A DNA stretch of 64,000 nt from Acidimicrobiaceae bacterium (GTDB taxonomy: Bacteria; Actinomycetota; Acidimicrobiia; Acidimicrobiales; RAAP-2). The first letter of the stretch is position 1; each line of letters starts with the position of its first letter. The position numbers and the translations under genes are program-made. The notes under the pieces are model-generated. The model was given only the letters and a program-made list of their open reading frames with translations. It was not told the DNA's origin and did no database searches. This document shows positions 27,843-55,985 of this stretch, piece after piece. The stretch covers positions 3,759 to 67,758 of the forward strand of contig PNAT01000179.1 in assembly GCA_003169675.1 (NCBI GenBank), given 5' to 3'.

Positions 27843-27847
27843 GAGTT

Positions 27848-32187: not shown

Positions 32188-32341
32188 CCAACCAGCTCGG
32201 TTGGGGTTGTCGAGGCGAACTCGGGCACGTCCAACCCGCACGGTCTGCCCGAAGTGCAAGTCTCCGTACTGGGACATGGCACGGCAGATGCCAAAGGGGT
32301 CCAGTAGGCCCCCAACGGGTACGATTTTGAAGTAACAAGCG

Positions 32342-38828: not shown

Positions 38829-39283
38829 GAGACTGCCCGGTACGGGTCAATGTGAGCCGACGACGTGGCGGTCAGGGTCTTTGTACCCGGGACCCCAGGG
38901 ACGGACACGTCAGCCAGGCTGGTGACGCAGGTGACCGTGACCGACACCCATCCTCCGGCCACGAAGTTGGCCGTGTCGACGCTTATCCCCGGCGCGGTGC
39001 AGGTGAGCCCCGCTCCGGCCAGGGTGCCCTCCGCCGCCGTGGTGGCCTCACTCTGGGCCCGGGCCGGGTCGGCTTGGACGACGGCGGCCTGGACGCCGGC
39101 CCGGGCGGCGGATTCGACGTCTCCCTGAGCCGAGTCGATCCGCCCAAGGGCCACCATGAGGACGATGACGATCAAGAGAACCGGGGCGACGATCACCAGC
39201 TCGGCGATGGCCGATCCCTCCTCACTTCTGGGCCGCCGGGGTCGCTCAGCCACTTGGGGCAAATGCCTTGAGTTCTCAGGCAA
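38825..39283 (-). CDS. TadE-like protein
   Basis: EEGSAIAELVIVAPVLLIVIVLMVALGR is a typical TadE N-terminus. The start is uncertain: TTG at 39283 or GTG at 39253. Confidence 0.6.
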   Translation of the reverse strand: MPENSRHLPQVAERPRRPRSEEGSAIAELVIVAPVLLIVIVLMVALGRIDSAQGDVESAARAGVQAAVVQADPARAQSEATTAAEGTLAGAGLTCTAPGISVDTANFVAGGWVSVTVTCVTSLADVSVPGVPGTKTLTATSSAHIDPYRAVS

Positions 39284-39422
39284 GGTGTTCCTCCAGTTGA
39301 GACGTTGTTCCTGGCCGCGGCCGGCGCGAAGGGAGATTCGGAGGATCTGACCGTTTCTCGGATTTGCGCGTTAGTCTTCGAGAATCATGATGATCTGTCG
39401 ACCCTGGTGAACTGAGCAAACC

Positions 39423-40508: not shown

Positions 40509-40512
40509 ATCG

Positions 40513-40833
40513 ATGCAGTGGAACTTGCGCATGAAGGCTGCCGAAGCTGGTATCTGGAAGTCAACGGAACTTCGTCGCCAACTCGCCGATGCTGGCCTGG
40601 TGATCTCGGCGGGGAAGATGTCGGCTTTGTGGACCGGCACCCCCACCAGCATCCGCCTGGACGACCTCGACGTGATCTGCGTGGTGTTGGAGTGCGCGCC
40701 ATCAGACCTGCTGTTGCCCGAGCCAGACAAGATCGCCGTCGCCACGCCAGCCAAGGAGGCAACGAGCGGCACGGTGGGGCCAAGGCGGGCGGCACCCCGG
40801 TTGGGTCGCCAACGCTCGACCCCGCCGATGTGA
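40513..40833 (+). CDS. XRE/Cro-type helix-turn-helix protein
   Basis: STELRRQLADAGLVISAGKMSALWTG.PTSIRLDDLDVICVVLECAPSDLL is a classic HTH_3-like pattern. It starts 5 nt after the upstream stop. Confidence 0.7.
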   Translation: MQWNLRMKAAEAGIWKSTELRRQLADAGLVISAGKMSALWTGTPTSIRLDDLDVICVVLECAPSDLLLPEPDKIAVATPAKEATSGTVGPRRAAPRLGRQRSTPPM

Positions 40834-42518
40834 GCACACCCCGCAACTGTGATGGTTGTGGCACCAAGGCTGTCGCCACCAAGATGCACCGCTTCTGCTT
40901 CAGCTGCGAGCCTGGCGGACCCTATGAACCGCCGCCATGCCAACGTTGCGGTTCCACCGACGACTACTACTCCGCCGGGCTGTGCGTCCGTTGCCACCAA
41001 TGGGCCCCACAGCCGGTCACCTCGTGTCGAGACTGCCTTGCATGGGGTGTTCGCCGCATCCACGGCGGACTGTGCTTGGCCTGTGTCGCGTGGCGGAAGA
41101 AGAACCCGAGGATGAGCTGTTGCCGTGTCTGCAAACGGAGGCGCCATGTCAATGTCGATATGGCCTGTCGGCTCTGCTGGCGCCAGGCCATGGCGTCGAA
41201 GAGGCCACGAGAACCGCTCGAACTGCTCCGTCGGAACCGGCACGGTCAACAGCTGTTCATTGCCGACATCGGTCGCATCTCGATGGTGCCGCCTAGGCAG
41301 CACGAACCTCGTCCACCAGCACGATCCAGGCGGGTTCACCAGCTGAGCTTGTTCGACCCGCCCAAGCAGACATGGCTGTCTGTCCACGGGTTCGGCGAAC
41401 CACCCAACCCAATGCTGGCCAAGCTGATCGACACCACCTGTCTCGACCACGCCATCCATCACGGCTGGAGCAAGGGCACCACCCAACGGACTCGGTGGTC
41501 GCTGCGGGCACTGCTCGGCATGCTCCAACACCGTGACGGTCCATTGGCGGCGAGCACAGTGATCGCTCGGATGGACGGAACGGGCTGGCCGGTCCGGCCG
41601 GTGCTCGCCATTCTTGACGAGGTCGGGATGCTCGACGACGATCGCATTCCCGCCGTCGACCTCTGGTTCCGACGAGCAATCGCCGGATTGCCTCCCCAGA
41701 TCACCGCTGAATTGCAGGCCTGGTCCGACGTGCTGCGCCACGGCAGCACCACCACACCACGAAGTGCGCCGCGCCAGCCCATCTTGATCCGAACCCGCTG
41801 CTATTGGGCCCTCCCCACCATCCGATCCTGGGCCGAGGGTGGCCGGCAATCGCTGCGCGAGATCTCTCGGGACGACGTGCTCGCAGCGCTGCCGAGCAGC
41901 GGCAACGCCCGAGCCACGACGGCGATCGGCCTGCGCTCCATCTTCAGGGTTCTCAAGGCTCGCAAGATCATCTTCGTCAACCCCACTACCCGACTCAACG
42001 CCGGCACCGTCGCCAGTCGTGAGCCTCTTCCCATCGATGTCGATCGACTCCGTGAGATCCTCCAGAGAGACGATCCCGCCCGGGCAGCGCTTGGAGGGCT
42101 CATCATCTTCCACGGGTTGAGCGCACTTGACCTCTGCGCTCTCACGCTCACCGACATACGCGGCTCGCGGCTCGCCATCGGTAATCGGACGATCCCACTC
42201 GCTCCAGCTGTCAGCCAACGCATCGCCGCCTGGCTCAACCATCGCAACTCCCGCTGGCCCAACACAGCCAACCCCCACCTGTTCGTCCATTTCCGGAGCG
42301 CGATCACCCTCGGCCCCGTCGGTACACAATGGCTTCGCCTCACCCTCGGCGTACCCGTTCGGGCCCTTCGCGAGGACCGCATCCTCAACGAAGCTCATGC
42401 CACCCACGGAGACGTCCGTCGCATCGTCGACCTGTTCGGCCTGAGTGCCAATGCCGCCGCCCGCTACACGAGGACCGTCGATCATCCCGATCTCCTCCAT
42501 TTCGACGAAATCCTGTAG
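40830..42518 (+). CDS. Zinc-ribbon-rich protein with C-terminal tyrosine-recombinase-like domain (catalytic residues apparently degenerate)
   Basis: GTGA overlap with the HTH gene. Eight CxxC pairs lie in the first ~120 aa (CDGC, CFSC, CQRC, CVRC, CRDC, CLAC, CRVC, CRLC). The C-terminal integrase-like fold signature is GLRSIFRVL..., LREDRILNEA..., AARYTR. Confidence 0.6.
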   Translation: MSTPRNCDGCGTKAVATKMHRFCFSCEPGGPYEPPPCQRCGSTDDYYSAGLCVRCHQWAPQPVTSCRDCLAWGVRRIHGGLCLACVAWRKKNPRMSCCRVCKRRRHVNVDMACRLCWRQAMASKRPREPLELLRRNRHGQQLFIADIGRISMVPPRQHEPRPPARSRRVHQLSLFDPPKQTWLSVHGFGEPPNPMLAKLIDTTCLDHAIHHGWSKGTTQRTRWSLRALLGMLQHRDGPLAASTVIARMDGTGWPVRPVLAILDEVGMLDDDRIPAVDLWFRRAIAGLPPQITAELQAWSDVLRHGSTTTPRSAPRQPILIRTRCYWALPTIRSWAEGGRQSLREISRDDVLAALPSSGNARATTAIGLRSIFRVLKARKIIFVNPTTRLNAGTVASREPLPIDVDRLREILQRDDPARAALGGLIIFHGLSALDLCALTLTDIRGSRLAIGNRTIPLAPAVSQRIAAWLNHRNSRWPNTANPHLFVHFRSAITLGPVGTQWLRLTLGVPVRALREDRILNEAHATHGDVRRIVDLFGLSANAAARYTRTVDHPDLLHFDEIL

Positions 42519-42643
42519 TCCGATGACCGCGCACTCACCCGACACCCCTCGGGTCGCGGAACCCGAGCGTTCCGGTGCGCTCCAAATCGGACACCCACGC
42601 TCGGGTTTGAGCCCCGCAGGGCTTCGGAAATCCTGAACTCGAG

Positions 42644-43021
42644 TCAATTGGTGCGGTACTTCTGGATGGGGGCGTCGCTCGTGGCCGACACGGTGAGGTC
42701 GAACCAGGGGATGAGCGCCTGGGTCCGTCCGCTGACCGTGACCTGAGCCACGTCACCCGAGAGTGTCGTGGTCGAGACCGACGCGTTGGTGAGGGTGCCC
42801 GGACCAGTGGTGGCGATGAACTGGTAGGCGGCCTGGGTGCCCGCTGTCTCAGTTGAGCCGTAGCCCGACGCCACCTGGCTGCCCTGCTCGGCCGCGGCGC
42901 GGGCCAAGTGGGCGGCGTGGGACCACAGGGCGAACTGAATGCCGGCCACGACCAGGAGGAAGAAAACGGGGAGGCAGATGACAAAGTCCGCGAATCCCTC
43001 CTCTCCTCGACCTCTGTGCAT
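42644..43021 (-). CDS. TadE-like protein
   Basis: Trimmed to the ATG at 43021. EEGFADFVICLPVFFLLVVAGIQFALW is a TadE-type N-terminus. Confidence 0.65.
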   Translation of the reverse strand: MHRGRGEEGFADFVICLPVFFLLVVAGIQFALWSHAAHLARAAAEQGSQVASGYGSTETAGTQAAYQFIATTGPGTLTNASVSTTTLSGDVAQVTVSGRTQALIPWFDLTVSATSDAPIQKYRTN

Positions 43022-43056
43022 CCAGGCCGGCTTCCGGCCCTGCGGGACAGCTCGGG

Positions 43057-43320
43057 TCACGGGGTCTGGATGTTGTTGGCGGTGTTGGTGAGCTTGGCGG
43101 TGACGATGCCGACGATGACGATGGCAGCGGCCACGACGAGGGCGGTGACCACCACCCACGAGGCGATCTCGCCACGTTCGTCGGCGGCGATGAGGGAGGA
43201 CCGGGCGGACAGATAGGCGCGTAGGAAGCTGAGAGTGGTCCTGACCGACTCGAAGGCCGAGCGCGCCAAGGTCTTGATCTTCTCTGTGTGGTCCTGGATG
43301 GTGACGTTGGGGGATGCCAT
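43057..43320 (-). CDS. Flp/Fap-type pilin-like protein with long leader
   Basis: 87 aa. DERGEIASWVVVTALVVAAAIVIVGIV resembles the G/xxxxE(Y/W) Flp processing region followed by a hydrophobic helix. It sits immediately 3' of tadC. Confidence 0.55.
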   Translation of the reverse strand: MASPNVTIQDHTEKIKTLARSAFESVRTTLSFLRAYLSARSSLIAADERGEIASWVVVTALVVAAAIVIVGIVTAKLTNTANNIQTP

Positions 43321-43382
43321 GGGATTCCTTTCGCTGTTGGGTGGTTGGGTTCAGATGTGGCTGGGTTCAGATATGGCGGCAA

Positions 43383-44285
43383 TCAGAGGTGGCTGCCGGT
43401 GAAGGCGGCAAGGGCGGGATAGAAGACGAGGACGCCGTAGCCGGCCATGAGGAACACGCCGGGCAGCAGCATCTTCTGAGTGACGGCCTGGGCGGCGTCT
43501 TCGAGGGCGGAGGTCTCCTTGAGGCGCATCGACTGGGCTTTGGCGTCGAGCGAGTCGCGGATGCGGGCCCCGTCGCCGGCCCCCGACATGGCCCGGGCCA
43601 GATCGGTGAGGTCCGGCAGATTGAAGCGAACGGCGAGACGCTCCAAGCCTTCCCAGGGCTGTCTGCGATAGGCCTGCGCCCACAGCAGGGACTGGGCGAT
43701 CTCATCCATGGCCCAGTCGGTCGACGACACGGTGGAGGCGACCTCCAGAGCGCTGGACCATCCCATGGCGCCGGCCATGGCCATGGACACCAACGACGCG
43801 TAAGTGGACAGCGAATGGCAGAAGTGCCGTCGGCGGCGCTCGGCTGCCTTGTGAAGATCGACGAACGGGCTGATCGCCCCCGCGGTGCCGAGGACCAGGA
43901 CGCCGAGGGTCGGAACTTCGAAGCTGAGGTGGAGGCCGATGGCACCCATGGCGGCCCAGAGCACCGGGCCGAGCAGGGCGAGCCCGATGGCGTAGCCGAC
44001 GACTTTGACGGCGAAGGCCTCGATGGGGGTGCCGGTGATGGCCAGGTCGGGCAGGACGATCTCGGCCAGGCGGGGGATCTTCTTGACGTTGGTATCGACG
44101 AGGTGCCCGGCCAGGTGCCGGGTGCCACCGACCCGGTGGTTCAGGACGTCGACGGGGGCGGGGGTGTGGTCACCGCTGAGTCGGGCCAGGGCGGCTCGCA
44201 GCGTCAGTGGCGGCGGGAACAAGCCCCAGAGCACGGTGGCCAGTCCGACACCCAAACCAAGTCCAATGACGACGATAAAGGCCAC
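43383..44285 (-). CDS. tadC: Type II secretion system F-family protein TadC
   Basis: Polytopic membrane protein in the tadB-tadC pair position. The GTG start abuts the tadB stop. Confidence 0.7.
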   Translation of the reverse strand: MAFIVVIGLGLGVGLATVLWGLFPPPLTLRAALARLSGDHTPAPVDVLNHRVGGTRHLAGHLVDTNVKKIPRLAEIVLPDLAITGTPIEAFAVKVVGYAIGLALLGPVLWAAMGAIGLHLSFEVPTLGVLVLGTAGAISPFVDLHKAAERRRRHFCHSLSTYASLVSMAMAGAMGWSSALEVASTVSSTDWAMDEIAQSLLWAQAYRRQPWEGLERLAVRFNLPDLTDLARAMSGAGDGARIRDSLDAKAQSMRLKETSALEDAAQAVTQKMLLPGVFLMAGYGVLVFYPALAAFTGSHL

Positions 44286-45116
44286 CTATTTGCCTTTCTC
44301 GAAGAGCCGGGGCATGGGCTGGGGGCGCGACAGGCGGTTCATGGCGGCGAACCCGCAGGCGAACAGGGAGGCGACACAGAGCAGGGCGACCTGACCGGCC
44401 GGAGTGCCGAAGGGTCTGAAGTAGCCGTGGCCGATGACCAGGATGCCGAGCGTGAAGACGAGAGTGACGGCGATCACGAGGCGCATGTCACGCCGTGGTT
44501 TGGATCGGGCGACCTCGGTCCGTTGCCACAGCGCAATCTGGTCGCGTGTGCTCCTCGCCGCGCTGGCCAGCAGGCTCTGGAGGTCCGAACCACCGAAGCG
44601 CGCCGCCAGGATGAGCGGGGCGATCGCTTCGTCAACGGCGGCATCGCCCAGTTCGGCGGCAAAGGTGTATAGGGCCCCGTCGAGCGGGGTGCCGCTCTTG
44701 ATGCGCGCGACCAGGCGGGCGACGTTGCCCTTGATGCTCGGCGGGGCGCTCCGTTCGGTGGACTCGATGGCCGCCAGCAGTCCCCGATGGGCGGCCACGC
44801 TGTCGCGGAGCGCCTCGATCCAGGTGGCGAGAGCCTCGAGGCGGCCGACGACACGCCGCGAGGTGTTCGGCTGCACGGCGGATCGGAGCGTCCAGCCCAC
44901 GGCCCCGCCGATGGCGGCGCCGACCGGCCAGTGGGTCACCAGCCCGACCATGACGGCGAGGAACACGGCGCAGGCGGCGGCCTGGCGGTTGGCGGGGTCG
45001 ACCCGCCTGATCAAGGACAACCGGGCGGCCGGGCGGGCCGTGGACCAGATGCCCCCGATGGCGAGGGCCAGGCCCACGCCGATGCCGGCGCCGAAGAGGA
45101 CGACGACCGGGGTCAC
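44286..45116 (-). CDS. tadB: Type II secretion system F-family protein TadB
   Basis: Trimmed to the GTG at 45116, a GTGA overlap with the cpaF stop. Polytopic membrane protein. Confidence 0.7.
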   Translation of the reverse strand: MTPVVVLFGAGIGVGLALAIGGIWSTARPAARLSLIRRVDPANRQAAACAVFLAVMVGLVTHWPVGAAIGGAVGWTLRSAVQPNTSRRVVGRLEALATWIEALRDSVAAHRGLLAAIESTERSAPPSIKGNVARLVARIKSGTPLDGALYTFAAELGDAAVDEAIAPLILAARFGGSDLQSLLASAARSTRDQIALWQRTEVARSKPRRDMRLVIAVTLVFTLGILVIGHGYFRPFGTPAGQVALLCVASLFACGFAAMNRLSRPQPMPRLFEKGK

Positions 45117-46411
45117 CGGCCGTACACCTGGAGGGGGGTCTCGTAGCCGAAGTCGGACAACCGGTCGCGCAGTCCCGGGGGCATGGAGAGGTGGTGCACG
45201 GCCGGACCACCCCCCTCGGGTTCGGCGAAGATCTCGGTCGAGATGACATGGGGGCCGTCGGAGTCCTCGACCACGCGCACCGAGGACACGTAGCGCCGCG
45301 CCAGACCCGAGGCGTCGGGCCGTTTGCGGACGAAGATCACCAGGTCCAGTGCCTGGGCGGTGAGCTGGGCTGCCGCGTTGTCGCTCAGGTGCTTGGGGGA
45401 CTGGGAAGCGTAGGTCTTGATCTTCCCGAACGTGCCTTCGGTCGAATCGGCGTGGATGGTGCACATGGAGCCGGCCTTGCCCGCCGTCATGGCGTTGAGC
45501 ATCGGGACGACCTCATCGCCCAGGACCTCGCCCACGATCACCCGGTCGGCGTCATGGCGGTTGGCCCGTTGCACCAGGTAGTCCATTAAGACCGCTCCTT
45601 GGCCTTCGGTGTTCGCCTCCCGGGTCTCCCAGGCCACGCAGTCGGGATGGCGATGGGGCAGCTCGTGGAGACCGAGCTCGTAAGACAGCTCAATGGTGAC
45701 GATCCGATCCGCAGGGTCCGCTTCGGCGGCCAGGGCACGCAACAAGGTGGTCTTGCCGGCATCGGTGCCGCCCGAGACGATCATGTTCAGCCGGGTCCGC
45801 ACGGCGGCGCGCAAGAAGCAGGCCAACTCGTCGGTCAGAGAATCGGCCAGGTCGTCGAGGGTGGGGTCGACGAGGCGGTGCCGTCGGATCGAGACGCACG
45901 GGCGGTTCGACACCTCGATCATGGCTGAGAGCCGGTGACCACCTGAGAGGTGGAGGTCGACGATGGGCTTGGCGCTGTCGATACGGCGCTCGCCGCCGGT
46001 GTGGTGCGCCCGGGCGGCCCGCTGGACCAGCTCGATCAGGTCCTCGTCGGTGTCCGCGATCGCCTCGACCCGCTCTTTGGTGCCGTCGGCGCGCTTGACC
46101 CACACGTGGTCGCAGCCGTTGATGTTGATGTTCTCGATGTCGTCCTCGTCCAGGAGAAGTTGGAGGCGGCCGAGTCCGAGCTGCGTGGCGACCAATCGGC
46201 GGACGATCTGCTCCTCCTCCTCGGCACTCGGCGTGGTCACACCCCCGTGGACCATGGAGCGGGCGGCTTCGTCGATGGCCTCGCGGGCGAGCTTCTCGAC
46301 AAAGGAGCGGCGCTCGCCTTCGCTCATGCCGGCAGTGCCGTAGTGGACGATCCCGTCAGCGACGTGCTCCGTCGCGTAACGCTCCAGCTCCCGGCGTTCG
46401 GCGTCGTTCAC
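45113..46411 (-). CDS. cpaF: CpaF/TadA secretion ATPase
   Basis: Walker A VSGGTDAGKTTLLRAL. RIVTIE, VIVGEVLGDE and MTAGKAGSMCTIHA are typical of CpaF/VirB11-type ATPases. GTGA overlap start at 46411. Confidence 0.9.
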   Translation of the reverse strand: MNDAERRELERYATEHVADGIVHYGTAGMSEGERRSFVEKLAREAIDEAARSMVHGGVTTPSAEEEEQIVRRLVATQLGLGRLQLLLDEDDIENININGCDHVWVKRADGTKERVEAIADTDEDLIELVQRAARAHHTGGERRIDSAKPIVDLHLSGGHRLSAMIEVSNRPCVSIRRHRLVDPTLDDLADSLTDELACFLRAAVRTRLNMIVSGGTDAGKTTLLRALAAEADPADRIVTIELSYELGLHELPHRHPDCVAWETREANTEGQGAVLMDYLVQRANRHDADRVIVGEVLGDEVVPMLNAMTAGKAGSMCTIHADSTEGTFGKIKTYASQSPKHLSDNAAAQLTAQALDLVIFVRKRPDASGLARRYVSSVRVVEDSDGPHVISTEIFAEPEGGGPAVHHLSMPPGLRDRLSDFGYETPLQVYGR

Positions 46412-47274
46412 CTTCGTGCCTCCCACTTCGATCCGGCTCCTACGGGCTCCGCCTCGTCTCGGGCCGGGTCCCACGACTGCGTCGGGGCTTCGACATTCGC
46501 TTGGAACAGCTCGACTTCCGGCTCCTCGGGGACCACAGTGGCGGTGGGGTCGACCGGAGCCATTTCCTCGATGCCCAGTGCCCCGACGAGTGCGCTGGCC
46601 CACCGCAGGAGCCGAGTGCGTTCGAGCCTCTTGACGCTGCGCTTGTTGGCCAGCGCGTCAGCAGCCTTGCGATCGTCGGGAATGGGCGGGCCGACGGCGA
46701 CCCCGAGGGTCTTGCCGATCTCCGCGCTCGAGTAGCCGACCGTTCCGGTGGGGATGACGAGGAGCTGGCGGCTACGCATCTCGGCCACCAGGCCGGGGAG
46801 GGCGGCTCGGAGGTGGACGATCGCTTCGAGCGTCGGTTCGCACAGGACGACCAGGGCGTCGGTGTGGTCGAGAACGTCGCGGATGCCACCTGCGAAGCCG
46901 GGAAGGAGCCGGCCGGCGTCGACGACCACGTCGGCGTCGAGGGCGCCGAGCGCCTCCGCGATGGTGGGCCAGGCCTTCTCGTTGGCCACGGCCCCCTGCA
47001 CGTTGGAGAGGCCGAACAGGACGGGAAGGCCACCAGGGAGTTGATCGACGTGGTCCCAGACGGCGTCAGGGTTCAGCGTGCGTCGGGCCGCGGCAAACAG
47101 GGAGACGAGACCGTTGGTGATGGTCGAGCCGTAACGGGGGGCCAGGTCGCCACCGAACGGGTCGGCTTCGACCAGGAGGACCCTGCGTCCCCTGGGCCAA
47201 CTCGCCGCGAGCGCGAGGGCCGCGGTCGTGACGCCCGGCGAACCCTTGATGGAGGCGAGAGCGATGACGGTCAC
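46408..47274 (-). CDS. ParA/MinD-like ATPase (TadZ/CpaE-like)
   Basis: VIALASIKGSPGVTTAALALA...VLLVEADPFGGDL is a deviant Walker A fold. Positioned between cpaB and cpaF. Confidence 0.7.
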   Translation of the reverse strand: MTVIALASIKGSPGVTTAALALAASWPRGRRVLLVEADPFGGDLAPRYGSTITNGLVSLFAAARRTLNPDAVWDHVDQLPGGLPVLFGLSNVQGAVANEKAWPTIAEALGALDADVVVDAGRLLPGFAGGIRDVLDHTDALVVLCEPTLEAIVHLRAALPGLVAEMRSRQLLVIPTGTVGYSSAEIGKTLGVAVGPPIPDDRKAADALANKRSVKRLERTRLLRWASALVGALGIEEMAPVDPTATVVPEEPEVELFQANVEAPTQSWDPARDEAEPVGAGSKWEARR

Positions 47275-47975
47275 TTTTGTCCTTCGCTCACGAGCGACAG
47301 ACCGATCTGGTCTGCCGCGGCATAAGAGGTCACGGTGGCTGCGTCGGCACTGGGGACTTCGAGCGAGACGGATGCCTCGTACTGGGTCTGGTTCGCCGGT
47401 GCGGGTCTCACCGCGAACACGGTGGCCGAGGCCACCAGGGTCGAGCCGATCGTTCCCCCGACCGTGGAGCCCTGGCCGGGCTGGGGAACCGCTATGACCT
47501 GGACCGTGTCACCGGCCACCAGCGGCACGGAAGGCATCTGGTCGCCCTTCATCAGCATGCCGACCACCTGTTCACCAGTGGCGAGCTGGGGCGTGGTCGA
47601 GAGCATCTGGCGGACCATCACCTGGCCGGCGTAGACCGGGGTGTCGAGCTGCTGGCCGACCAGGGCGCCCGACCCGGTGGCCGACATGGCCGTGATGTCC
47701 CCTGAGGCGGGGATGGTGGCAGTCGCCAGGTCACCGGGAACAAGGACGGTGCTGGCCGCCAGGTTCTTCGCCGCCACGACGATCGCCACCCGTTTCGCCG
47801 AGGACTGGAACACCGCTCCGGCCACCGCCGCACAGACGAGCACCAGCGCGATTCCGAGGCCGATCTGCCACGGTCGGCGTTGGTAGGTGCCGGTGGACAG
47901 GCGGAGTCCGCTCCGGTTCTCGACGACCGGCGGGGACGTGAAGACGGGCCGGGTGGGGGCGGTGGTTGTGGCCAT
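47271..47975 (-). CDS. cpaB: Flp pilus assembly protein CpaB/RcpC-like
   Basis: N-terminal TM segment WQIGLGIALVLVCAAVAGAVF, then a SAF-like segment. Position fits CpaB. Confidence 0.7.
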   Translation of the reverse strand: MATTTAPTRPVFTSPPVVENRSGLRLSTGTYQRRPWQIGLGIALVLVCAAVAGAVFQSSAKRVAIVVAAKNLAASTVLVPGDLATATIPASGDITAMSATGSGALVGQQLDTPVYAGQVMVRQMLSTTPQLATGEQVVGMLMKGDQMPSVPLVAGDTVQVIAVPQPGQGSTVGGTIGSTLVASATVFAVRPAPANQTQYEASVSLEVPSADAATVTSYAAADQIGLSLVSEGQK

Positions 47976-47990
47976 CGGATCTCCAGTTCT

Positions 47991-48917
47991 TTAGTTGTTC
48001 ACGGATTGGATCTGGGCGACTTTCAGCGAGGTCGTCCCCCGGGTGGTGAGGCTGGGTAGAGAGCCGGCCGACCCGGCCGGGCCAGACCAGGCGACCGTCC
48101 ACGTCACCGTGGCGATGATCGGAAAGGCCGCGTCGTTGGGGTTGCCGTCGGGAGTGGGCTGCCCTGCCGACGTCTTGGTGTAGGTGTGCGAGCAGTAGGT
48201 CGACTGCGCGTCAGCCGGAATCGCCGTGTTGTAGGCGGTGCCGGGACCGTTGCAGGTGACGGTCGTCCCGTCACCGGTGTTCCACGTCACGTACGCCGGG
48301 GAGGCGGTGGCCGATGCGGTCGTGCACCCGCCCGAGGTACAGGCCTGGGCGGTGGTGGTGAAGGGGTGCCAGATCGACGGATCGATCCACAGCCATTCGG
48401 CGAGGTTCACGTACCCGCTTTTCGACGGGCTCAGGACCAGCGATGGGCTGGAGAGTCGAAGTTCACTGGCCGCCTGCACGCCCACGACTGCCGGATCGGG
48501 CGGCGGAGTGCCAGGCACCTGGCCGGTGGCGAACCACTCGATCCCCGTCGCCATCCCTTGGGCACTCCCCTGGGCGCAGAGGTTCACGTACCAGGCTCCG
48601 GGCTGGGTTGCCCCGGCCGGGGGCCCACCCCCGTCTCCCCCCGGAAAGGCAACCGAAAAGGACACGAAATCGGGGCACTGAGGCTGCGTGATCCCACCAC
48701 CGCCGCTGGTCGAACCCCCGCCTCCAGCGTCCCCGCCGCCAGAGCCCGGCTGGCCGCCGGCACCGGCGCCGCATGTCACGGTTTGGCCCGAGTCGGTGCA
48801 GCCACCGGATCCGCCGCCAGTGCCTGTACCTGCGAAGGCAAACCCAGGTGTGGCTCCAATGGCCACTGACGTAAACGCCACTCCGCTCGCGATCTGGAAC
48901 AGAACCCTCCTCAGCAT
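47991..48917 (-). CDS. Secreted Gly-rich protein of the Tad locus
   Basis: Signal peptide MLRRVLFQIASGVAFTSVAIGATPGFAFA, then G-rich linkers and a T/S-rich domain. Confidence 0.55.
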   Translation of the reverse strand: MLRRVLFQIASGVAFTSVAIGATPGFAFAGTGTGGGSGGCTDSGQTVTCGAGAGGQPGSGGGDAGGGGSTSGGGGITQPQCPDFVSFSVAFPGGDGGGPPAGATQPGAWYVNLCAQGSAQGMATGIEWFATGQVPGTPPPDPAVVGVQAASELRLSSPSLVLSPSKSGYVNLAEWLWIDPSIWHPFTTTAQACTSGGCTTASATASPAYVTWNTGDGTTVTCNGPGTAYNTAIPADAQSTYCSHTYTKTSAGQPTPDGNPNDAAFPIIATVTWTVAWSGPAGSAGSLPSLTTRGTTSLKVAQIQSVNN

Positions 48918-49510
48918 TTCGGAACCGACGATGTCTTGAAGGTGCCGATCTTCCACGAACCATTTGCGAGCTGAAGATCCCAGGTGCCGCTGTAGGCACC
49001 AGCCCCTCCGCCATCGAGAGTGACCGGGCCGGGCTTACCGGAAGCGGTAGTTGTGCCCGTGTCATAAACGCAGCCCGTGACCGTCGCAGAAGAGGCACCC
49101 AGGACGGTGACCGTCGGATGGCCGAGGTTGTAGGTCGTCGGTCCAGTCAGCTGACCCATCTTCACCCCGACGAGGAACTCGTCCTCCGATTGGAGTGCCG
49201 GGTTGGTGAAGTAGTCGGCGAGCTTCGGCCAGAGGTTGGCACTGGTCTCACCGCCGACGAGGTCAGCTCGATCCTGCTGCCAAGACCCTTGCAGGTAGCC
49301 GTAGAGGGTTTGCTCGGCGGACTCCCAGGCGTTCAGGACGGCTGTTCGTGTTGCACTTGCTGGGCTCGATGTGGAGGTTGTGCCCGCCGATCCTGTGGTC
49401 CTGGTTACCGAGGTCGATGTGCTCGCGTTGGTAGCGGGGCCGGACGAGCACCCGGCCATGACGACGGCTATAGCCCCGGCAGCCAAGGCGACTGTTGATC
49501 TCTGCAACAT
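48911..49510 (-). CDS. Lipoprotein (first gene of the Tad operon)
   Basis: Trimmed to the ATG at 49510. The lipobox is in MLQRSTVALAAGAIAVVMAGCSS. Confidence 0.6.
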   Translation of the reverse strand: MLQRSTVALAAGAIAVVMAGCSSGPATNASTSTSVTRTTGSAGTTSTSSPASATRTAVLNAWESAEQTLYGYLQGSWQQDRADLVGGETSANLWPKLADYFTNPALQSEDEFLVGVKMGQLTGPTTYNLGHPTVTVLGASSATVTGCVYDTGTTTASGKPGPVTLDGGGAGAYSGTWDLQLANGSWKIGTFKTSSVPKC

Positions 49511-49637
49511 CGTCTTGGCCGGTGTCACCGTTGATGTCACCCTTCCTCTCCTCTCGTCGGCCGGCTCAGCCGATGGGTGCCCGATTGCGCGCTGGTCTGC
49601 CAAAGAAAGGTCGACCCAGAAGGGGATGATGCGCGAC

Positions 49638-49661
49638 GAATGTCACCCTGAACGTCACCCT
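49638..49661. repeat. Tandem iterons GAATGTCACCCT and GAACGTCACCCT upstream of the Tad operon
   Basis: Read directly. Same family as 13181-13204, in the same orientation relative to the downstream minus-strand gene. Confidence 0.9.
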
Positions 49662-49780
49662 CCGATGCCAGAGGGAGGATTCCTTGAAGATTTCTGCGGC
49701 CCGATGCGCCGTTGGGAACCACATCAGCACGCCGACGGCAGACCCGGTCCCGCACCGTTCTCGTGGAGAATCCGGGTTGG

Positions 49781-49808
49781 AGGGTGACGTCGCGCTGAAC
49801 GTCACCCT
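49781..49808. repeat. Inverted iteron pair AGGGTGACGT-CGCGCTGA-ACGTCACCCT
   Basis: Read directly; 10-bp arms. Confidence 0.85.
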
Positions 49809-49893
49809 CCCAGTTCAGTGGCACATTGTGATGACCCGGCGGTCGATTGTTCGCAACGAACGTGACCCGGTGCGAGGTTCTACAACTCGGCTC

Positions 49894-49905
49894 AGGGTGA
49901 CGTTC
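49894..49905. repeat. Single iteron AGGGTGACGTTC
   Basis: Read directly. Confidence 0.8.
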
Positions 49906-49961
49906 CTGGGAAGAATTCCACCTGCGGAACCGATACAAGGTGGTCGATTGCGGTAACGGCA

Positions 49962-50183
49962 CTACCCGGAGTCGTCGACGGCGCGCCGAAGAGCCTGTGC
50001 GATGAACTGGGTGATGCTCAACGCCCGGGCCTTGGCTGCCTCCCGAACGTCCTCGCGCAGAGTCCGTTCGAGCCAGAAGGTCACTCGAATGTGACGCTGG
50101 TCCCAGGATTCTTCCTCGGCGTCCGGACCGCGCCCACCCTCGGATCCACGACCGCTGGGCGGATGCCCTGTCGTGTTGGCCAT
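49962..50183 (-). CDS. Ribbon-helix-helix regulator flanked on both sides by the iteron clusters
   Basis: RHIRVTFWLERTLREDVREAAKARALSITQFIAQALRRAV fits a beta-alpha-alpha RHH layout. Confidence 0.65.
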   Translation of the reverse strand: MANTTGHPPSGRGSEGGRGPDAEEESWDQRHIRVTFWLERTLREDVREAAKARALSITQFIAQALRRAVDDSG

Positions 50184-50342
50184 AACCCCTCCCCGTTGTG
50201 TGACGTGCTGGTAGGTAGCTGGCTCCCCGCCTCGTCAGCCTCATGGTCGGCACCATAGCGCAATTGCATACGGTGTGCTGCTTACCGTGTGCAGTATTTC
50301 CAAACTGGCCCCTTGAGCTGCTGGTTCGACGTTCCCGGATCG

Positions 50343-50430
50343 AGGGTGACGATCCGGCGGCGAGGGTGACATCGACGTCCCGGAAAAGATTCAGGGGTGA
50401 CGTGCCGGGGTGACGTTCAGGGTGATGTCC
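50343..50430. repeat. Cluster of five same-orientation iterons (AGGGTGACGATC, AGGGTGACATCG, AGGGGTGACGTG, GGGGTGACGTTC, AGGGTGATGTCC)
   Basis: Read directly. It lies in the divergent region between the RHH gene and the small-ORF/xis operon, and the last unit ends 59 nt before the ATG at 50490. Confidence 0.85.
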
Positions 50431-50489
50431 ATCTGGACCATGGGAAGGGACCAGGACGCGTTGTCCTGGCGCCGAAGCAGGGAGGTCCG

Positions 50490-50645
50490 ATGCTCACGAA
50501 GCACAAGAGCGTTATGTCGTGGCTGTCACCTATCGACGAGGAGGTGACGGAGTTGTTCAGTAGGGCACCCTCAGCCGGTCGCCCGCGGGAGGCGGCTACC
50601 TACTTCTCTCCCGGCGATCCCGACTCGTCCGGGGGTGCAGCATGA
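50490..50645 (+). CDS. Small hypothetical protein translationally coupled to the excisionase-like gene
   Basis: A GGGAGG SD lies 5 nt before the ATG. ATGA overlap with the next gene. 51 aa, no motif recognised. Confidence 0.4.
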   Translation: MLTKHKSVMSWLSPIDEEVTELFSRAPSAGRPREAATYFSPGDPDSSGGAA

Positions 50646-50857
50646 CCATCGTCGCCAGCGCCGAACACGACCGGCTCGCCGCAGCAGATCTGATCTCGAT
50701 ACCCGATGCCGCCGGCCGGGTCGGCCTGCACGTCGACACGCTCTACCGGCTCTGCCGGACCGGCCAGTTCCCGCCGGCCATCCAGATCGGATCACGGTGG
50801 AGGGTGTCGGTACCGCGGCTGGAGCGCTACCTTCACGGTGACATCGCGGAGTTGTGA
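50642..50857 (+). CDS. xis: Excisionase-family helix-turn-helix DNA-binding protein
   Basis: LISIPDAAGRVGLHVDTLYRLCRTGQFPPAIQIGSRWRVSVPRLERYL is a typical MerR-like excisionase HTH. Confidence 0.75.
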   Translation: MTIVASAEHDRLAAADLISIPDAAGRVGLHVDTLYRLCRTGQFPPAIQIGSRWRVSVPRLERYLHGDIAEL

Positions 50858-51083: not shown

Positions 51084-52277
51084 TCAGTCAATCGGAGGTG
51101 GAGAGGGAACGTCTTCTGGGTAGCTGAGAGCGAAATTCTTGATGCAGTCTGGCCCTTCGTGTTCACTTTCGATATTTGAGGGCTGGTAGCCCAGCTTGAA
51201 GAGGACTTCCTTGACCGGCTCGGTCTCAAGGTTGACGATGCAGAATCTTGCCGCTCCTAGGCCTTCGAGGTCGGGGGGCAAATTCTCCCGAAGAATGGAA
51301 GTGAAAACGAGGTCAGTTAGAGGTAGCGAATAGCCCATCAGAACTATCCGCCGAGGACGCTGTAGCGCTGAGGCCGCACGTTGCCATAGCTCTTTCGTAA
51401 CGGGGTTTCGGTAGTAGGCGGACTTTGTCGCCGTTGGAGGCACTATGAAGGGGACTCTCCCAGGCAATCGCCTCCGACGCTCATCTTCGTCCTGCTGCTC
51501 CCAGGAGCCGAATCCACCGGCGAGATTCCAAGTGTTGAGCGTTGCCCCCGTTAAATCGCCAGGACTCCAGTACCAGTTGAGGGAACCGTGAAGTTTCAGA
51601 AGCCTGAACGACTCAGTCAATGGACCGGCAAGGCGGCTCGGGTGTGGTGGAGGAGGAGGCAGGTCGCCGAGGATGTCATGGGGTCTCACCCTCTCTCCCT
51701 TCGGCGGGTGGTGGTCCATTAGCTCCGAACCGAGCACTGCGTATTCGATCAGATTGTCGTAGTTGAATGTAATGACCGTGTTTTTGCGGCGGTGAAACTC
51801 GGCCACCAACGTCGTGAGCCAAGGTGGGCACGGTCCTGAGCCCAGAGTCTCCTTCTGGCAACGGCTCAACGAGATGTGGATAACCGAACTGATGGTCTCG
51901 AACAGACCTCGGTTTGAGGCGTTCGTCGCATCGTCGTAGTCAGGCTGGTCCTCGGCCAGCCGCGAGAGCCACTGCTCGAAGTACCCACCCGCGAACCGCG
52001 ACTTCGGGAGCCAGTGTTCCCAGCCGCCTCCGACGAGCGCGAGCCTCAATGATTCTCCCAGGGGATCGGTCAAGGGCATCAGTTCGGAAACGGCGTGAGA
52101 GAACCCGGCTCCAAGTACGAACACGTCTGTGGCGACACGTACTTCAATAGTCGTGCTGCCTGGAGCGCCCGGAGGAGGCCGTCTCATCGAGGTTCGTCCA
52201 TTGTGAGGGCAACCTTCTTTGTTCAACTTGCAGAGGGCACGAACGAGATTTCGGAAATCCACCCCGCTCCGGAGCAT
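51084..52277 (-). CDS. SIR2-like (SIR2_2-type) NAD-binding/NADase-like protein
   Basis: VFVLGAGFS (Rossmann GAG), VITFNYDNLIEY (catalytic Asn box), LLKLHGSLNW (His box) and IVLMGYSLPLTDL. An alternative start is the ATG at 52187. Confidence 0.7.
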   Translation of the reverse strand: MLRSGVDFRNLVRALCKLNKEGCPHNGRTSMRRPPPGAPGSTTIEVRVATDVFVLGAGFSHAVSELMPLTDPLGESLRLALVGGGWEHWLPKSRFAGGYFEQWLSRLAEDQPDYDDATNASNRGLFETISSVIHISLSRCQKETLGSGPCPPWLTTLVAEFHRRKNTVITFNYDNLIEYAVLGSELMDHHPPKGERVRPHDILGDLPPPPPHPSRLAGPLTESFRLLKLHGSLNWYWSPGDLTGATLNTWNLAGGFGSWEQQDEDERRRRLPGRVPFIVPPTATKSAYYRNPVTKELWQRAASALQRPRRIVLMGYSLPLTDLVFTSILRENLPPDLEGLGAARFCIVNLETEPVKEVLFKLGYQPSNIESEHEGPDCIKNFALSYPEDVPSPPPID

Positions 52278-52292
52278 CGTAGAACGGTCGGG

Positions 52293-52502
52293 TCAGGTCC
52301 CAATCGTCCGAATGCCAATAATGGCGTAGGGCGGCAAGATTCCGAATTCGAGCGGCTTGGAAACCACGGCGAACTCAATCAGGAGACCGGCCGGCCCTTC
52401 GGCAACGGTGAATCCTTCTTCCGAGAAGCCGACGACCGATGGAGGTCCAGTGATTTCAAGGCTGACTCGGCGCTTCTCGAGCTTCGGCTTCTCGTCACTC
52501 AC
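52293..52502 (-). CDS. Small hypothetical protein (69 aa) between the PIN and SIR2 genes
   Basis: GTGA overlap with the PIN gene stop. It ends 15 nt before the SIR2 ATG. No motif recognised. Confidence 0.4.
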   Translation of the reverse strand: MSDEKPKLEKRRVSLEITGPPSVVGFSEEGFTVAEGPAGLLIEFAVVSKPLEFGILPPYAIIGIRTIGT

Positions 52503-52987
52503 GGTTTGGACTGCTCGGCCAATGCATCGTCGAAGCTCACGACATGGGGAAGATTCGGCCTGCCTATCGCCAGCGGTGGATTACCCATCTCCCCGCTTCG
52601 CTTGATCAGCTCCTTGTCGAACGTATCCATGCGATCAATACCCTCAATCAAGGCCGTGGCAACGTGGACAGAATCTTTTGGGGCGAACCCGTACTTCCAA
52701 ATCAGGAGTCTTGCTTGCTCTGCAATCCGCCGATCCAATTGACGCACGACAATCCACTCGTGCTTGAAGAAATCCACGACCATTTGCTGGCTGGATTCGG
52801 GGATCTCGCGACCAGGCCCAAGCTTGATTACTTCGACCAACGTTATCGAGGAAGTCACCAGCTTGACCCGACCGCCTTCGGCTCCCTTGATGACAGTCCG
52901 GCACTCCTCGAATTTGTCCGGTTCCTTCTTGAGCCACCCAAGGAACACATCCGAATCCACGTAGCGGTTCGGAGGGGTATTCGCCAC
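52499..52987 (-). CDS. PIN-domain nuclease-like protein
   Basis: YVDSDVFLGWL (first Asp), SSITLVEV (Glu), PKDSVHVATAL (Asp) and a C-terminal DTFD. The GTG start abuts the upstream stop. Confidence 0.65.
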   Translation of the reverse strand: MANTPPNRYVDSDVFLGWLKKEPDKFEECRTVIKGAEGGRVKLVTSSITLVEVIKLGPGREIPESSQQMVVDFFKHEWIVVRQLDRRIAEQARLLIWKYGFAPKDSVHVATALIEGIDRMDTFDKELIKRSGEMGNPPLAIGRPNLPHVVSFDDALAEQSKP

Positions 52988-54568: not shown

Positions 54569-55747
54569 CTATCGCGCGAACACACGGCCAAGCACACTTG
54601 CCGCTGCCCGGTCGCGCTCGGGGAGGGCATGGGCGTAGCGGTTGAGCGTCATCGTGGCCTGAGCGTGTCCGTGGCGTTCCGCGACCGTGCGGATATCGAC
54701 GCCATCGGCAATAAGAGTGGTGACCGAGAAGTGGCGGAGGTCGTGCAGGTGGAACGGGTACCGTTCGGCGTCGGAGAGGGTTCGGCTGTCTTTTCCGGCA
54801 GACTTCTCGGCCTCCGTTTCGAGCTTGACGCAGAGCGACTTGAACCGGTGCGTCAGGGTGTCCGGTCCTACTGGTCGACCTCCATGGGCGTCGAACGAGA
54901 GAATGTACGGATTGGCTGCAAGCGGTGATCCCGCGCGTTCGGACAGTTCCTGCATGTAGTCCCACCTCCGCCGCAGCACGCTGACGCCGACATCGTCGAG
55001 CGAAACGTCCCTACCCTGGTGGGTCTTGGTCGGACCCTCGTGACCCTTCCCCTCGACGATCGTGAGCGATCGGGAGAACCGGATGCGGCCTTGGACCAAA
55101 TCTACGTCAGACCACCGGAGCGCGCAGAGCTCGCCCCGTCGGCATCCGGTAAGTGCTGCCAGTGCCAGAGCGGTCGCGAGGACGGGGTCGTCGGCCTCGG
55201 CGGAGCGCACGAGCTTGGCGACCTGCTCGGGCGTCGGGACCTTCATCTCCGGGGACCTGGGTTTCGGAGCGGTGGCCTGGTCCGTCGGGGCGCGGTCGAC
55301 CCACCCCCACTTGACCGCCTGACGGCACGCCGCGTGGAGAATCGAGTGGTAGACGGCGACGCTCGAAGAGGAAAGGCCCTCGGCGAGCCAGCGTTGGTAC
55401 GCGGCGTCGATGGCGTCGGCTCGGAGCTTGTCGAGACGGATGTCGCCGAGCACGGGACGAATCCGCCCTTCGATCTTCCGCTTGTACTCGTAGACCGTCT
55501 TCGGCCGGGCCTTGCCGATTGCCTCGACATGTGCAACCCACCGGTCGAGCAGTTCCCCAACTGTCGCTCGGTTCGGATCGACGACACGACTCTCGACCGC
55601 GGTCACCAGCTTCGCCAGCTCCTTGCGGGCGGCCGGCTCGGTGCCCCGGACCGTCCGGCTCTCTTGGATCGGCGTGTCGGTGTCGGGGTCCCGGCCCGCG
55701 TACACTCTCAGGCGCCATGTTCCTGACCCCTTCGGCCTCTCCGTCAT
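54569..55747 (-). CDS. int: Tyrosine integrase (phage-integrase family)
   Basis: GSGTWRLRVYAG N-terminal arm-binding type, LALAALTGCRRGELCALRWSDVD (Arg), HDLRHFSVT (HxxR) and HGHAQATMTLNRYAH (His...Tyr). An alternative start is at 55768. Its 5' end faces tRNA-Ile. Confidence 0.9.
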   Translation of the reverse strand: MTERPKGSGTWRLRVYAGRDPDTDTPIQESRTVRGTEPAARKELAKLVTAVESRVVDPNRATVGELLDRWVAHVEAIGKARPKTVYEYKRKIEGRIRPVLGDIRLDKLRADAIDAAYQRWLAEGLSSSSVAVYHSILHAACRQAVKWGWVDRAPTDQATAPKPRSPEMKVPTPEQVAKLVRSAEADDPVLATALALAALTGCRRGELCALRWSDVDLVQGRIRFSRSLTIVEGKGHEGPTKTHQGRDVSLDDVGVSVLRRRWDYMQELSERAGSPLAANPYILSFDAHGGRPVGPDTLTHRFKSLCVKLETEAEKSAGKDSRTLSDAERYPFHLHDLRHFSVTTLIADGVDIRTVAERHGHAQATMTLNRYAHALPERDRAAASVLGRVFAR

Positions 55748-55841
55748 CGTCCCTGCTCCACGTGCCATGTGGAGCAACGATAGCCGGAGTTGTAGTCCAG
55801 AAGTAGTCCAAAAGGGTCGGGGCAGACACATAACACCAGTA

Positions 55842-55915
55842 GGGGCTATAGCTCAGTCGGTTAGAGCGCAGCACTGATAATGCTGAGGTCGCAAGTTCGA
55901 TTCTTGCTAGCCCCA
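55842..55915 (+). tRNA. tRNA-Ile (anticodon GAT)
   Basis: GGGGCTATAGCTCAGTCGGTTAGAGCGCAGCACTGATAATGCTGAGGTCGCAAGTTCGATTCTTGCTAGCCCCA forms a canonical cloverleaf with anticodon loop CTGATAA. No encoded CCA. Confidence 0.9.
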
Positions 55916-55985
55916 CGCCGCGGATGTCGCCAAACATCTCGTGCGTCCGCCACGGCTCGCCGCCACGCACCCAAGGAGGTTCCAT

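Follow-up and report, generated by a model that had tools for sequence, protein, structure and literature searches.

A conserved 12-bp repeat upstream of the relaxase, excisionase and Tad-like pilus operons of an integrative conjugative element from Acidimicrobiia

Introduction

To our knowledge, nothing is known about how conjugative elements of the type IV secretion system (T4SS) type decide when to excise or transfer in Acidimicrobiia, a common, largely uncultured lineage of soil and peat; the hosts considered here are uncultured lineages represented by metagenome-assembled genomes (MAGs). In this work, we analyzed a stretch of 64,000 nucleotides from an Acidimicrobiaceae bacterium (contig PNAT01000179.1, positions 3,759 to 67,758; hereafter, the window). 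Its positions ~1 to 55,840 are a T4SS-type integrative conjugative element (ICE) of Acidimicrobiia that adjoins a tRNA-Ile gene, and the subject of this article is a 12-bp sequence repeated upstream of three operons of this element. An initial annotation, made from the letters alone, had called this sequence an iteron and had proposed that one regulator acts through it on DNA processing, excision and a Tad pilus. Two classes of ICEs of actinobacteria have been reviewed, and T4SS-type ICEs are a recognised, little-studied class in this phylum (PMC3429521).

Results

The repeats were found in three intergenic regions, which are located upstream of the relaxase gene, of an operon coding for a lipoprotein and a Tad-like pilus (the Tad side), and of an operon composed of a small open reading frame (ORF) and a gene for an excisionase-type protein (the xis side). 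Operons that differ in function within this one element thereby have a motif in common in their promoter regions. A gene for a 73-amino-acid candidate ribbon-helix-helix (RHH) protein lies between the two largest clusters of repeats in every locus that encodes it. The features are collected in Table 1.

The exact 12-mer AGGGTGACGTTC occurs six times in the window, while 0.00 copies were expected from 100 dinucleotide shuffles. When up to two mismatches were allowed, 27 matches were found versus 7.3 expected (16 in the largest shuffle), and a weight matrix built from 13 intergenic copies gave 32 matches of at least 11 bits, compared to a mean of 4.95 in mononucleotide shuffles. Thirteen matches lie within the three intergenic stretches, which together take up less than 1 kb. 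The 8 kb of chromosome to the right of the tRNA-Ile gene include one marginal match (11.5 bits, position 63132) and none of 12 bits or more. The consensus was refined to A-GGGTGACGT-T-C with 385 distinct copies, and positions 2-10 of it are conserved at 90% or more. The spacing between neighbors in the same orientation peaks at 12, 20-21, 31-33 and 45 nt, which fits arrays of cooperative binding sites. The tandem motif had no match in the viral contigs of IMG/VR. All repeat coordinates of the initial annotation held on exact and mismatch scans, and one exact copy located inside the relaxase gene, 10785-10796 (-), had been missed. Its distances to the start codons were also correct, namely 55 nt from the relaxase-side tandem pair (13181) to the relaxase ATG (13125) and 59 nt from the end of the xis-side array (50430) to the ATG of the small ORF (50490), and so was its statement that the tandem units are oriented toward the downstream gene in the three promoter-proximal cases.

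Table 1. Repeats, genes and other features of the element, from right to left along the window
Feature	Position	Strand	Remarks
Tyrosine integrase gene	54569-55831	-	Abuts the tRNA-Ile gene (55842-55916)
PIN toxin gene	52499-52987		Cargo
SIR2-like protein gene	51084-52277		Cargo
HTH_17 excisionase-type protein gene	50642-50857	+	xis operon, after the small ORF
Small ORF, 51 aa	50490-50645	+	xis operon, first gene
Leader hairpin	50451-50469		CCAGGAC-GCGTT-GTCCTGG
xis-side array	50343-50354, 50363-50374, 50394-50405, 50407-50418, 50419-50430	+	Five same-orientation copies; spacing 20, 31, 13, 12 nt
Double 13-bp palindrome	50265-50293		GCATACGGTGTGC / GCTTACCGTGTGC; just upstream of a TATGGT -10-like box (50252-50257, -) of the RHH gene
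RHH gene, 73 aa	49962-50183	-	Candidate binder; disordered N-terminal tail and predicted RHH domain
Perfect single copy	49894-49905	+	56 nt past the RHH stop codon, pointing at the 3' end of the RHH gene
Weak single copy	49858-49869	-	CGGGTCACGTTC; 14 bits
Convergent inverted pair	49781-49808		AGGGTGACGTCG (+), 49781-49792; AGGGTGACGTTC (-), 49797-49808
Tad-side tandem pair	49638-49661	-	AGGGTGACGTTC AGGGTGACATTC; in the promoter region of the lipoprotein/Tad-like operon; 97 nt to the lipoprotein GTG
Two degenerate units	49532-49543 and 49520-49531	-	AGGGTGACATCA, ACGGTGACACCG; overlap the Shine-Dalgarno GGAGAGGAAGG and the probable GTG start (49540)
Lipoprotein gene, 209 aa	48911-49540	-	First of the Tad-side operon; an independent gene call starts there
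Tad-like locus	38825-49540	-	After the lipoprotein gene: secreted Gly-rich protein, CpaB-, TadZ-, CpaF-, TadB/C- and TadE-like genes, to ~38825
ParA/MinD-type gene	46408-47274		Between the CpaB-like and CpaF-like genes
TIR protein gene	34204-35160		Cargo
tRNA-Gln gene	32341-32413	-	Between the ArdC and TIR genes
BREX-type defence genes	16367-29193	-	Cargo; lower G+C (0.57-0.61)
Mrr gene	15483-16265		Cargo
Perfect 15-nt inverted repeat	13343-13377		ACGAAGCCCCCTTCC / GGAAGGGGGCTTCGT, 5-nt loop; SSB-relaxase spacer
Candidate origin of transfer	13261-13303	+	Two hairpins, then invariant GGTGTGTGG; 57 nt from the tandem pair
Relaxase-side tandem pair	13181-13204	-	Two perfect copies (AGGGTGACGTTC x2), between the hairpins and the relaxase gene
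MOBF relaxase gene	9697-13125	-	TrwC domain (match 8.6e-77) and AAA_30 helicase
Two further relaxase-gene copies	11137-11148 and 11177-11188	- and +	18 and 16 bits; helicase region, opposite orientation; status uncertain
Relaxase in-gene copies	10764-10796	-	10785-10796 perfect, 10764-10775 degenerate; encode REGDVRRTQGVV
RHH-like ORF	8681-8965		Convergent with the 259-aa ORF
259-aa ORF	8946-9725
Near-perfect single copy	4368-4379	+	AAGGTGACGTTC, 16 bits; 8 nt upstream of the NlpC/P60-SLT hydrolase gene (GTG)
T4SS genes			Far left, convergent with the relaxase gene: VirB4-like, NlpC/P60-SLT hydrolase, VirD4 coupling protein
Exact copies of AGGGTGACGTTC	13181-13192, 13193-13204, 49650-49661, 49797-49808, 49894-49905, 10785-10796	-, -, -, -, +, -	

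Two sets of relatives were collected, and all of them came from MAGs of Acidimicrobiaceae/Acidimicrobiales or from metagenomes of peat and soil. When one genome per species was scanned, 21 loci of ~20 kb that encode the RHH protein (46-89% identical) were obtained, and a scan of metagenomes with the N-terminus of the relaxase gave 66 loci (48-87% amino acid identity, most of them 65-84%). In nearly all of the 21 RHH loci, GGGTGAY cores were present at fixed offsets from the RHH gene. Those of the xis side are at about -245, -233, -187 and -167, and those of the Tad side at about +285, +379, +398, +526, +538 and +644. These cores appear as invariant islands in the two intergenic alignments that flank the RHH gene, which are otherwise 64-67% identical. 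In each of three independent alignments, core columns were more conserved (0.90-0.95) than the rest of the intergenic columns (0.65-0.73; Mann-Whitney p 1e-8 to 5e-14). All matches of at least 14 bits in the RHH loci fall between -305 and +548 of the RHH start, with the sole exception of a 14-bit match at -984 in locus L017. The motif is restricted to the element across the 21 RHH loci and the 8 kb of chromosome in the window. The motif is thus strongly conserved in ~85 related loci, and these comparisons show strong purifying selection on the cores at fixed positions.

On the xis side, the array occupies a divergent region that the small ORF and the RHH gene have in common. The GTCACCC cores are invariant islands in the alignment of this region (A2), and the array comprises up to 11 copies in the relatives. 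The first gene of the xis operon differs between them. The 5' leader of this operon has a hairpin that is 97% paired in 10 loci and shows two compensated pairs. It is probably an RNA structure since its G-U pairs are valid only on the xis-sense strand.

The Tad-side repeats were compared in an alignment of 14 loci (A3). The stretch GGGTGACG.T....GTGAC of the tandem pair is invariant in all of them. In the inverted pair, the first unit is invariant and the second is a direct tandem copy in L015, L017, L018 and L019; the pair being inverted in the window and direct in these four more distant loci, the orientation can flip with the site being kept. The weak single copy is conserved only among the closer relatives. 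The perfect single copy, GAACGTCACCC, is invariant or nearly so in 14 of the 14 loci and is located at about +280 to +285 from the RHH start in all RHH loci. The first of the two degenerate units at the start of the lipoprotein gene is invariant in the 14 loci and the second is not; these units are ambiguous, as they could serve as an operator or owe their conservation to translation initiation alone. The lipoprotein gene is found downstream of the RHH gene in 20 of the 21 RHH loci, that is, in all those that extend far enough. Two ORFs that overlap these repeats, 49684-49956 (+) and 49566-49805 (-), were rejected as coding sequences because the alignment is rich in indels that are not multiples of three and they have no Pfam match.

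On the relaxase side, most of the 66 relaxase loci have the tandem pair at the very same offsets, -79/-67 relative to the start codon. In the alignment of this region (A4), GGTGACGTTnAGGGTGA is invariant and the spacer is 61% identical. The relaxase and xis promoters both have the sequence GGGTGACGTTCAGGGTGAyGTyCATCyGGAC followed by CATGG, and from their sequences they look like two copies of one regulated promoter. A 12-codon upstream ORF that overlaps the relaxase ATG (ATGGATCGG...TGATG) was considered and rejected, as its stop and frame are not kept in other loci.

Next to the tandem pair there is a structure that resembles an origin of transfer (oriT). It had gone unnoticed in the initial annotation, as had the in-gene array described below. 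Its first hairpin, CCGCCC-GAA-GGGCGG, is invariant across loci. The second, GCATC-CGAT-GATGC, shows compensated stem changes in other loci (GCACC/GGTGC, GCACTC/GAGTGC); it was read by eye, as RNAalifold recovered the invariant hairpin only, with indels breaking the alignment. The third feature, GGTGTG(T)GG, is invariant. The nick regions of MOBF relaxases usually consist of an inverted repeat followed by a conserved G/T-rich stretch, and the candidate resembles the nick context of the F plasmid. Judging from its sequence, the segment with the hairpins is likely the oriT. The perfect 15-nt inverted repeat in the spacer between the SSB and relaxase genes is a separate structure. It follows the SSB gene directly in compact relatives, with compensated variants in L026 and L040, and is probably a terminator without a T-run. 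An ORF that covers this inverted repeat (13234-13983) is doubtful.

The copies inside the relaxase gene lie in a region that codes for the loop between the SH3-like domain and the last helicase domain of the protein. Relatives (L022-L086) have 1-7 in-frame units at +2317 to +2413 of the relaxase gene, spaced by 12 or 21 nt, which encode QGDV or (L/P)R(T/N)QGDV (e.g., LRTQGDV). The codons GGT GAC GTT were used in 54 of the 62 GDV tripeptides of this zone, and 1.2% would be expected from codon usage elsewhere in the relaxases. This bias indicates that the DNA sequence is kept and not the peptide alone. The constraint could reflect selection for binding or concerted evolution among the units. The two further copies in the helicase region have equivalents (+1977/+1937) in only a subset of the relaxase loci.

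The 73-amino-acid protein has 40 homologues, whose source names include DUF1778 and HicB-like, and none in the plasmids of PLSDB. Its putative DNA-reading strand, RHIRVT(F/Y)WLE, is essentially invariant in 22 aligned homologues that are 52-96% identical to the window protein. The best match in a profile search of the PDB was the RHH antitoxin VapB26 (E=0.12), and in this match the pattern RVTFWLERTLREDVREAAKARALSITQFIAQALRRAV corresponds position by position to the VapB26 strand and its two helices. Among sub-threshold Pfam matches (E<=10, 22 homologues), CopG_antitoxin was found in 17 of the 22 (best 0.007), and CcdA, NikA-like, RHH_5, RHH_1, TacA1, RHH_4 and HicB were also present; the second commonest, TetR_C_9 (12 of 22), is not an RHH family. 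These matches, which are weak and consistent with one another, suggest that the 73-amino-acid protein is plausibly an RHH protein. In one frame the 12-mer encodes R-V-T-F, exactly the tetrapeptide at the core of the beta-strand of the RHH protein (IRVTFW; 50060-50090, and likewise in the RHH genes of L001-L018). This overlap was dismissed as a coincidence; the RHH codons match 9-10 of the 12 positions and vary synonymously.

The promoter region of the RHH gene has a different kind of site, the double 13-bp palindrome, which is kept in 13 of the 13 loci of alignment A2 and is unique in the window. It is a putative second, different type of operator, possibly the RHH protein's own site or that of a partner repressor.

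Discussion

Conserved cores at fixed positions are what a shared operator predicts. The comparisons described above indicate that the repeats behave as protein-binding sites under selection, and not as a genome-wide repeat or a chance pattern. The alignments give good support to a conserved operator set common to the three promoter regions, and this set would tie the transfer, excision and pilus genes into one regulon. With moderate confidence, we favor the interpretation that the 12-mer is the operator of an element-encoded regulator that would control the relaxase, small-ORF/Xis and lipoprotein/Tad-like promoters, the RHH protein being the most likely binder; for the latter point, taken separately, the chance appears to be about even or slightly better. 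Two properties count for the RHH protein, namely the position of its gene between the two largest repeat clusters and the invariance of its strand, which matches that of the motif. The initial annotation had placed an RHH gene at this position and had thought of its product as the kind of protein that binds such short repeats. The position is correct and the fold is plausible on weak evidence, and we infer the binding to the 12-mer. The same applies to its proposal of a single regulator for three operons, which agrees with the shared, conserved operator set and in which the identity of the binder and the sign of the control are deduced.

The operons also belong together, as had been claimed. 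All the modules are part of one ICE, and in compact relatives (L040, L063) the integrase gene, an HTH_17 gene, an array of 5-11 units, (SSB), the tandem pair and the relaxase gene follow one another within 4 kb. From this contiguous order it follows that the array of the xis side and the pair of the relaxase side are parts of a single type of element. The Tad module and cargo genes separate them in the window.

In the proposed mechanism, one RHH dimer would sit on each 12-mer, and neighboring dimers, on units located 12 or ~21 bp apart in direct or inverted orientation, would bind cooperatively as omega does on its heptads. Transfer, excision and pilus genes would be repressed by default while the element is integrated. 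Repression is proposed because RHH regulators are usually repressors and the last unit is close to the presumed core promoter or start codon. The pair located beside the oriT-like hairpins could also be a relaxosome accessory site, as with TrwA or TraY. If the oriT candidate is real, this pair is where the TrwA and TraY sites sit in R388 and F, and the regulator may double as a relaxosome accessory factor. As for the divergent region, where the xis operon has the 12-mers and the RHH gene the palindrome, one may speculate that it is a two-operator switch.

Several observations weigh against the RHH protein as the binder or against operators acting on these promoters. Neither this protein nor its homologues reach a Pfam RHH family above the gathering score, and the window protein has no match at E<=0.01. 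The AlphaFold2 monomer model is one continuous helix from residue 27 to 72 (predicted local distance difference test of 96 over residues 30-70), a monomer model being uninformative for a fold that forms only as a dimer. The promoter of the RHH gene is overlapped by the palindrome and not by the 12-mers, which begin ~60 nt further upstream, and it is through palindromes of this kind that RHH proteins more usually regulate their own genes. Long arrays were found beside xis-type genes in relaxase loci with no RHH homologue in the fetched stretches, which cover up to 4 kb upstream of the relaxase start and ~4.9 kb downstream. Winged-helix proteins with head-to-tail polymerisation, among them Xis, Cox and Apl, also typically have direct repeats without palindromes as their sites. 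A consensus-based scan of 49300-50700 and 12900-13500 found no sigma-70 promoter or terminator, and the relaxase and xis promoters, which both have a GAsCATGG block, differ by 7-8 nt in the distance of this block from the last repeat. The -35 and -10 boxes assigned by hand had an inconsistent spacing across the three promoters and no promoter is claimed here.

Part of this evidence would be accommodated if the shared operator were bound by another element-encoded protein, be it a polymerising HTH_17 winged helix of the excisionase type or an unrecognised one, and the RHH protein bound only its own palindrome. In such a case, the divergent region would work as a switch with two repressors, between the RHH gene and the xis operon. 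The palindrome, which overlaps the promoter of the RHH gene, has no further copy in the window, and the 5-11-unit arrays are always directly upstream of the HTH_17/small-ORF operon, including the loci without RHH in the stretches fetched around the relaxase. The head-to-tail layout at 12 or 21 bp resembles the sites of Xis, Cox and Apl. On the other hand, the HTH_17 proteins beside the arrays belong to at least three sequence types with different recognition helices. This diversity fits an invariant site poorly and counts for the RHH protein over HTH_17. In addition, the first gene of the xis operon in the window is a 51-amino-acid non-HTH ORF, and no other conserved DNA-binding gene was found. 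The RHH-like ORF to the left of the relaxase gene was rejected as the binder because it is present in only 3 of the 66 relaxase loci. Taken together, we regard another binder as rather unlikely.

Comparison with known systems places the interpretation of the 12-mer as an RHH operator in context. The omega/ParB protein of pSM19035 is a small RHH protein that binds arrays of 7-bp non-palindromic repeats, direct or inverted and varying in number (PMC9499535). The locus analyzed here is like the omega regulon of pSM19035/pIP501-type plasmids in that arrays of short non-palindromic repeats lie upstream of several operons, binding having been shown for omega and being predicted here. Omega coordinates separate plasmid functions through three promoters. 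Unlike the contiguous 7-bp units of omega, those found here are of 12 bp at a spacing of 12 or ~21 bp, there is no detectable sequence similarity, and the controlled functions would be relaxase, excision and Tad-like pilus instead of copy number, partition and a toxin-antitoxin pair. We know of no omega sites inside coding sequences.

ArtA of the Staphylococcus aureus plasmid pSK41 is an RHH master regulator of conjugation and segregation/partition genes that acts through a repeated operator, ACATGACATG, at several promoters (PMC2777438). The RHH protein is similarly predicted to have an extended N-terminal tail, and a short operator is found at several promoters. The two differ in sequence, operator and host phylum; ArtA occupies mostly single sites as one dimer and the sites here are pairs or arrays of up to 11, and the tail is acidic and Gly-rich, unlike the basic tail of ArtA. 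TrwA is an RHH accessory protein at the oriT of R388 that represses the relaxase operon and assists nicking (PMC4853378; see also PMC6514445). TrwA of R388, TraY of F, NikA and PcfF are RHH accessory proteins of the relaxosome whose target repeats adjoin the nick region of the oriT, ahead of the relaxase operon. Here, a tandem pair lies between oriT-like hairpins and the gene for a relaxase that is a MOBF enzyme of the TrwC family. Unlike in those systems, the RHH gene is 37 kb away from the relaxase gene and is not the first of the relaxase operon. In contrast to TrwA, TraY, NikA and PcfF, sites of the same kind are also present at the excision and pilus promoters, and a sub-threshold NikA-like match was seen in only 4 of 22 homologues. 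The repeat arrays of ParR/parC are similar in layout. In StbA/stbDR of conjugative plasmids, the direct repeats are arranged in two groups of about five, at a period near one helical turn, and the groups flank a promoter or precede it. They are bound by one small protein that links maintenance with conjugation (bioRxiv 10.1101/2022.04.29.490116). StbA differs in being a helix-turn-helix protein, the arrays of StbA/stbDR and ParR/parC are centromeres, and a partition role is not indicated here. By analogy, the locus appears to work most like the omega, ArtA and TrwA systems, and in sequence it is a member of none of those families.

Another possibility is that the arrays are mainly architectural, be it as centromere-like or pairing sites (as in omega/parS, ParR/parC or StbA/stbDR) or as relaxosome accessory sites at the oriT, with any transcriptional effect being secondary. 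Copies in variable number within the relaxase coding sequence agree with it, since centromere-type sites tolerate such a location and promoters do not need it, and so do the 57 nt between the relaxase-proximal pair and the oriT-like hairpin pair and the weak NikA-like matches of the four RHH homologues. The parS of pSM19035 needs at least four contiguous repeats (PMC9499535), and some of the arrays here have 5-11. The element also has a ParA/MinD-type gene. However, this gene occupies the normal place of TadZ/CpaE and is better read as a pilus component, and the sites are for the most part pairs or single copies whose distance to the start codon downstream is fixed, as befits operators. A mainly architectural role therefore seems improbable to us.

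It is very improbable that the repeats are not protein-binding sites at all, and are instead -35-like elements used by a special sigma factor or selfish repeats that are prone to slippage and spread through gene conversion. In favor of this reading, the TGAC of the core resembles a -35 hexamer, GAAC on the other strand resembles the -35 boxes of extracytoplasmic function (ECF) sigma factors, and copy number differs by whole units between close relatives, showing slippage or unequal exchange. Against it, the 7-8 nt difference in distance to the GAsCATGG block led us to reject a -35 box or ECF-type element, the arrays comprise 2-11 units and both orientations occur, no gene for a sigma factor was detected in the window, and single copies at fixed positions are invariant though their flanks diverged to 61-67% identity. 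The term iteron, in its replication sense, was abandoned because the unit is of 12 bp and not of ~17-22, the sites are dispersed at promoters and within a gene, the region has 60-65% G+C, and no Rep initiator gene was found in the window. The clt/TraB repeats of actinomycete integrative and conjugative elements (AICEs), 8-bp TRS units to which an FtsK-like TraB translocase binds, were also rejected, as this element has a set of VirB4-like, VirD4 and TrwC relaxase genes. No FtsK/TraB gene was detected in the element, and the motif differs from the AICE repeat GACCCGGA.

If the 12-mer is the operator of the RHH protein, control of a known kind would be present in an unstudied family of ICEs; its unusual feature is the array embedded in a coding sequence. 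One 12-bp site and one 73-amino-acid candidate could explain the coordination of DNA processing, excision and the Tad-like pilus, which makes a cheaply testable handle, and the motif can be used as a key to search metagenomes for members of this ICE family and for their targets. The in-frame array illustrates with unusual clarity how a DNA motif that looks regulatory can be constrained within a protein-coding region, and it was the least expected feature of the locus. We suggest, only tentatively, that it is a working cis-element of 1-7 operator units. Selection would act on these units as DNA, and the peptide repeats that they encode would be tolerated because they fall in a surface loop. From these units, a regulator could loop to the promoter pair located 2.4 kb upstream, block elongation, or pair DNA. 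If so, the gain or loss of units would tune the transfer frequency between closely related elements, and the in-gene array together with the RHH/palindrome/xis layout would be a previously undescribed control circuit for T4SS-type ICEs with a Tad-like pilus in an actinobacterial class that has been little studied.

Other Features of the Element

The window has 60-70% G+C. The relaxase is less than 40% identical to plasmid MOBF relaxases. No att-type direct repeats of the tRNA-Ile or tRNA-Gln regions were found within the window (seeds of at least 14 nt), which leaves the left end of the ICE undefined here. A search with Rfam detected the two tRNAs and nothing else. The TIR protein, tRNA-Gln, ArdC, BREX, Mrr and SSB genes are located between the Tad-side operon and the relaxase gene. 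In the BREX set, BrxL carries a Ser/Thr protein kinase domain as a fusion; the other members are PglZ, a PglX-like methylase, a DUF6079/BrxC-like protein and BrxB.

The Tad-like locus codes for a CpaB/SAF protein, a TadZ-like ParA, a CpaF ATPase, TadB/C and two TadE-like proteins, and ends with two proteins of ~1100 amino acids, one of which carries a LysM domain. By analogy with plasmid-borne type IV pili, this Tad-like pilus may be the mating-pair pilus of the element. The RHH-like ORF to the left of the relaxase gene has a weak Rv0623/PSK_trans_fac match; as the pair that it forms with the convergent 259-amino-acid ORF is found in only 3 of the 66 relaxase loci, it is accessory and possibly toxin-antitoxin-like. 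The near-perfect single copy of the 12-mer that precedes the NlpC/P60-SLT hydrolase gene falls inside the 3' end of the VirB4-like ORF.

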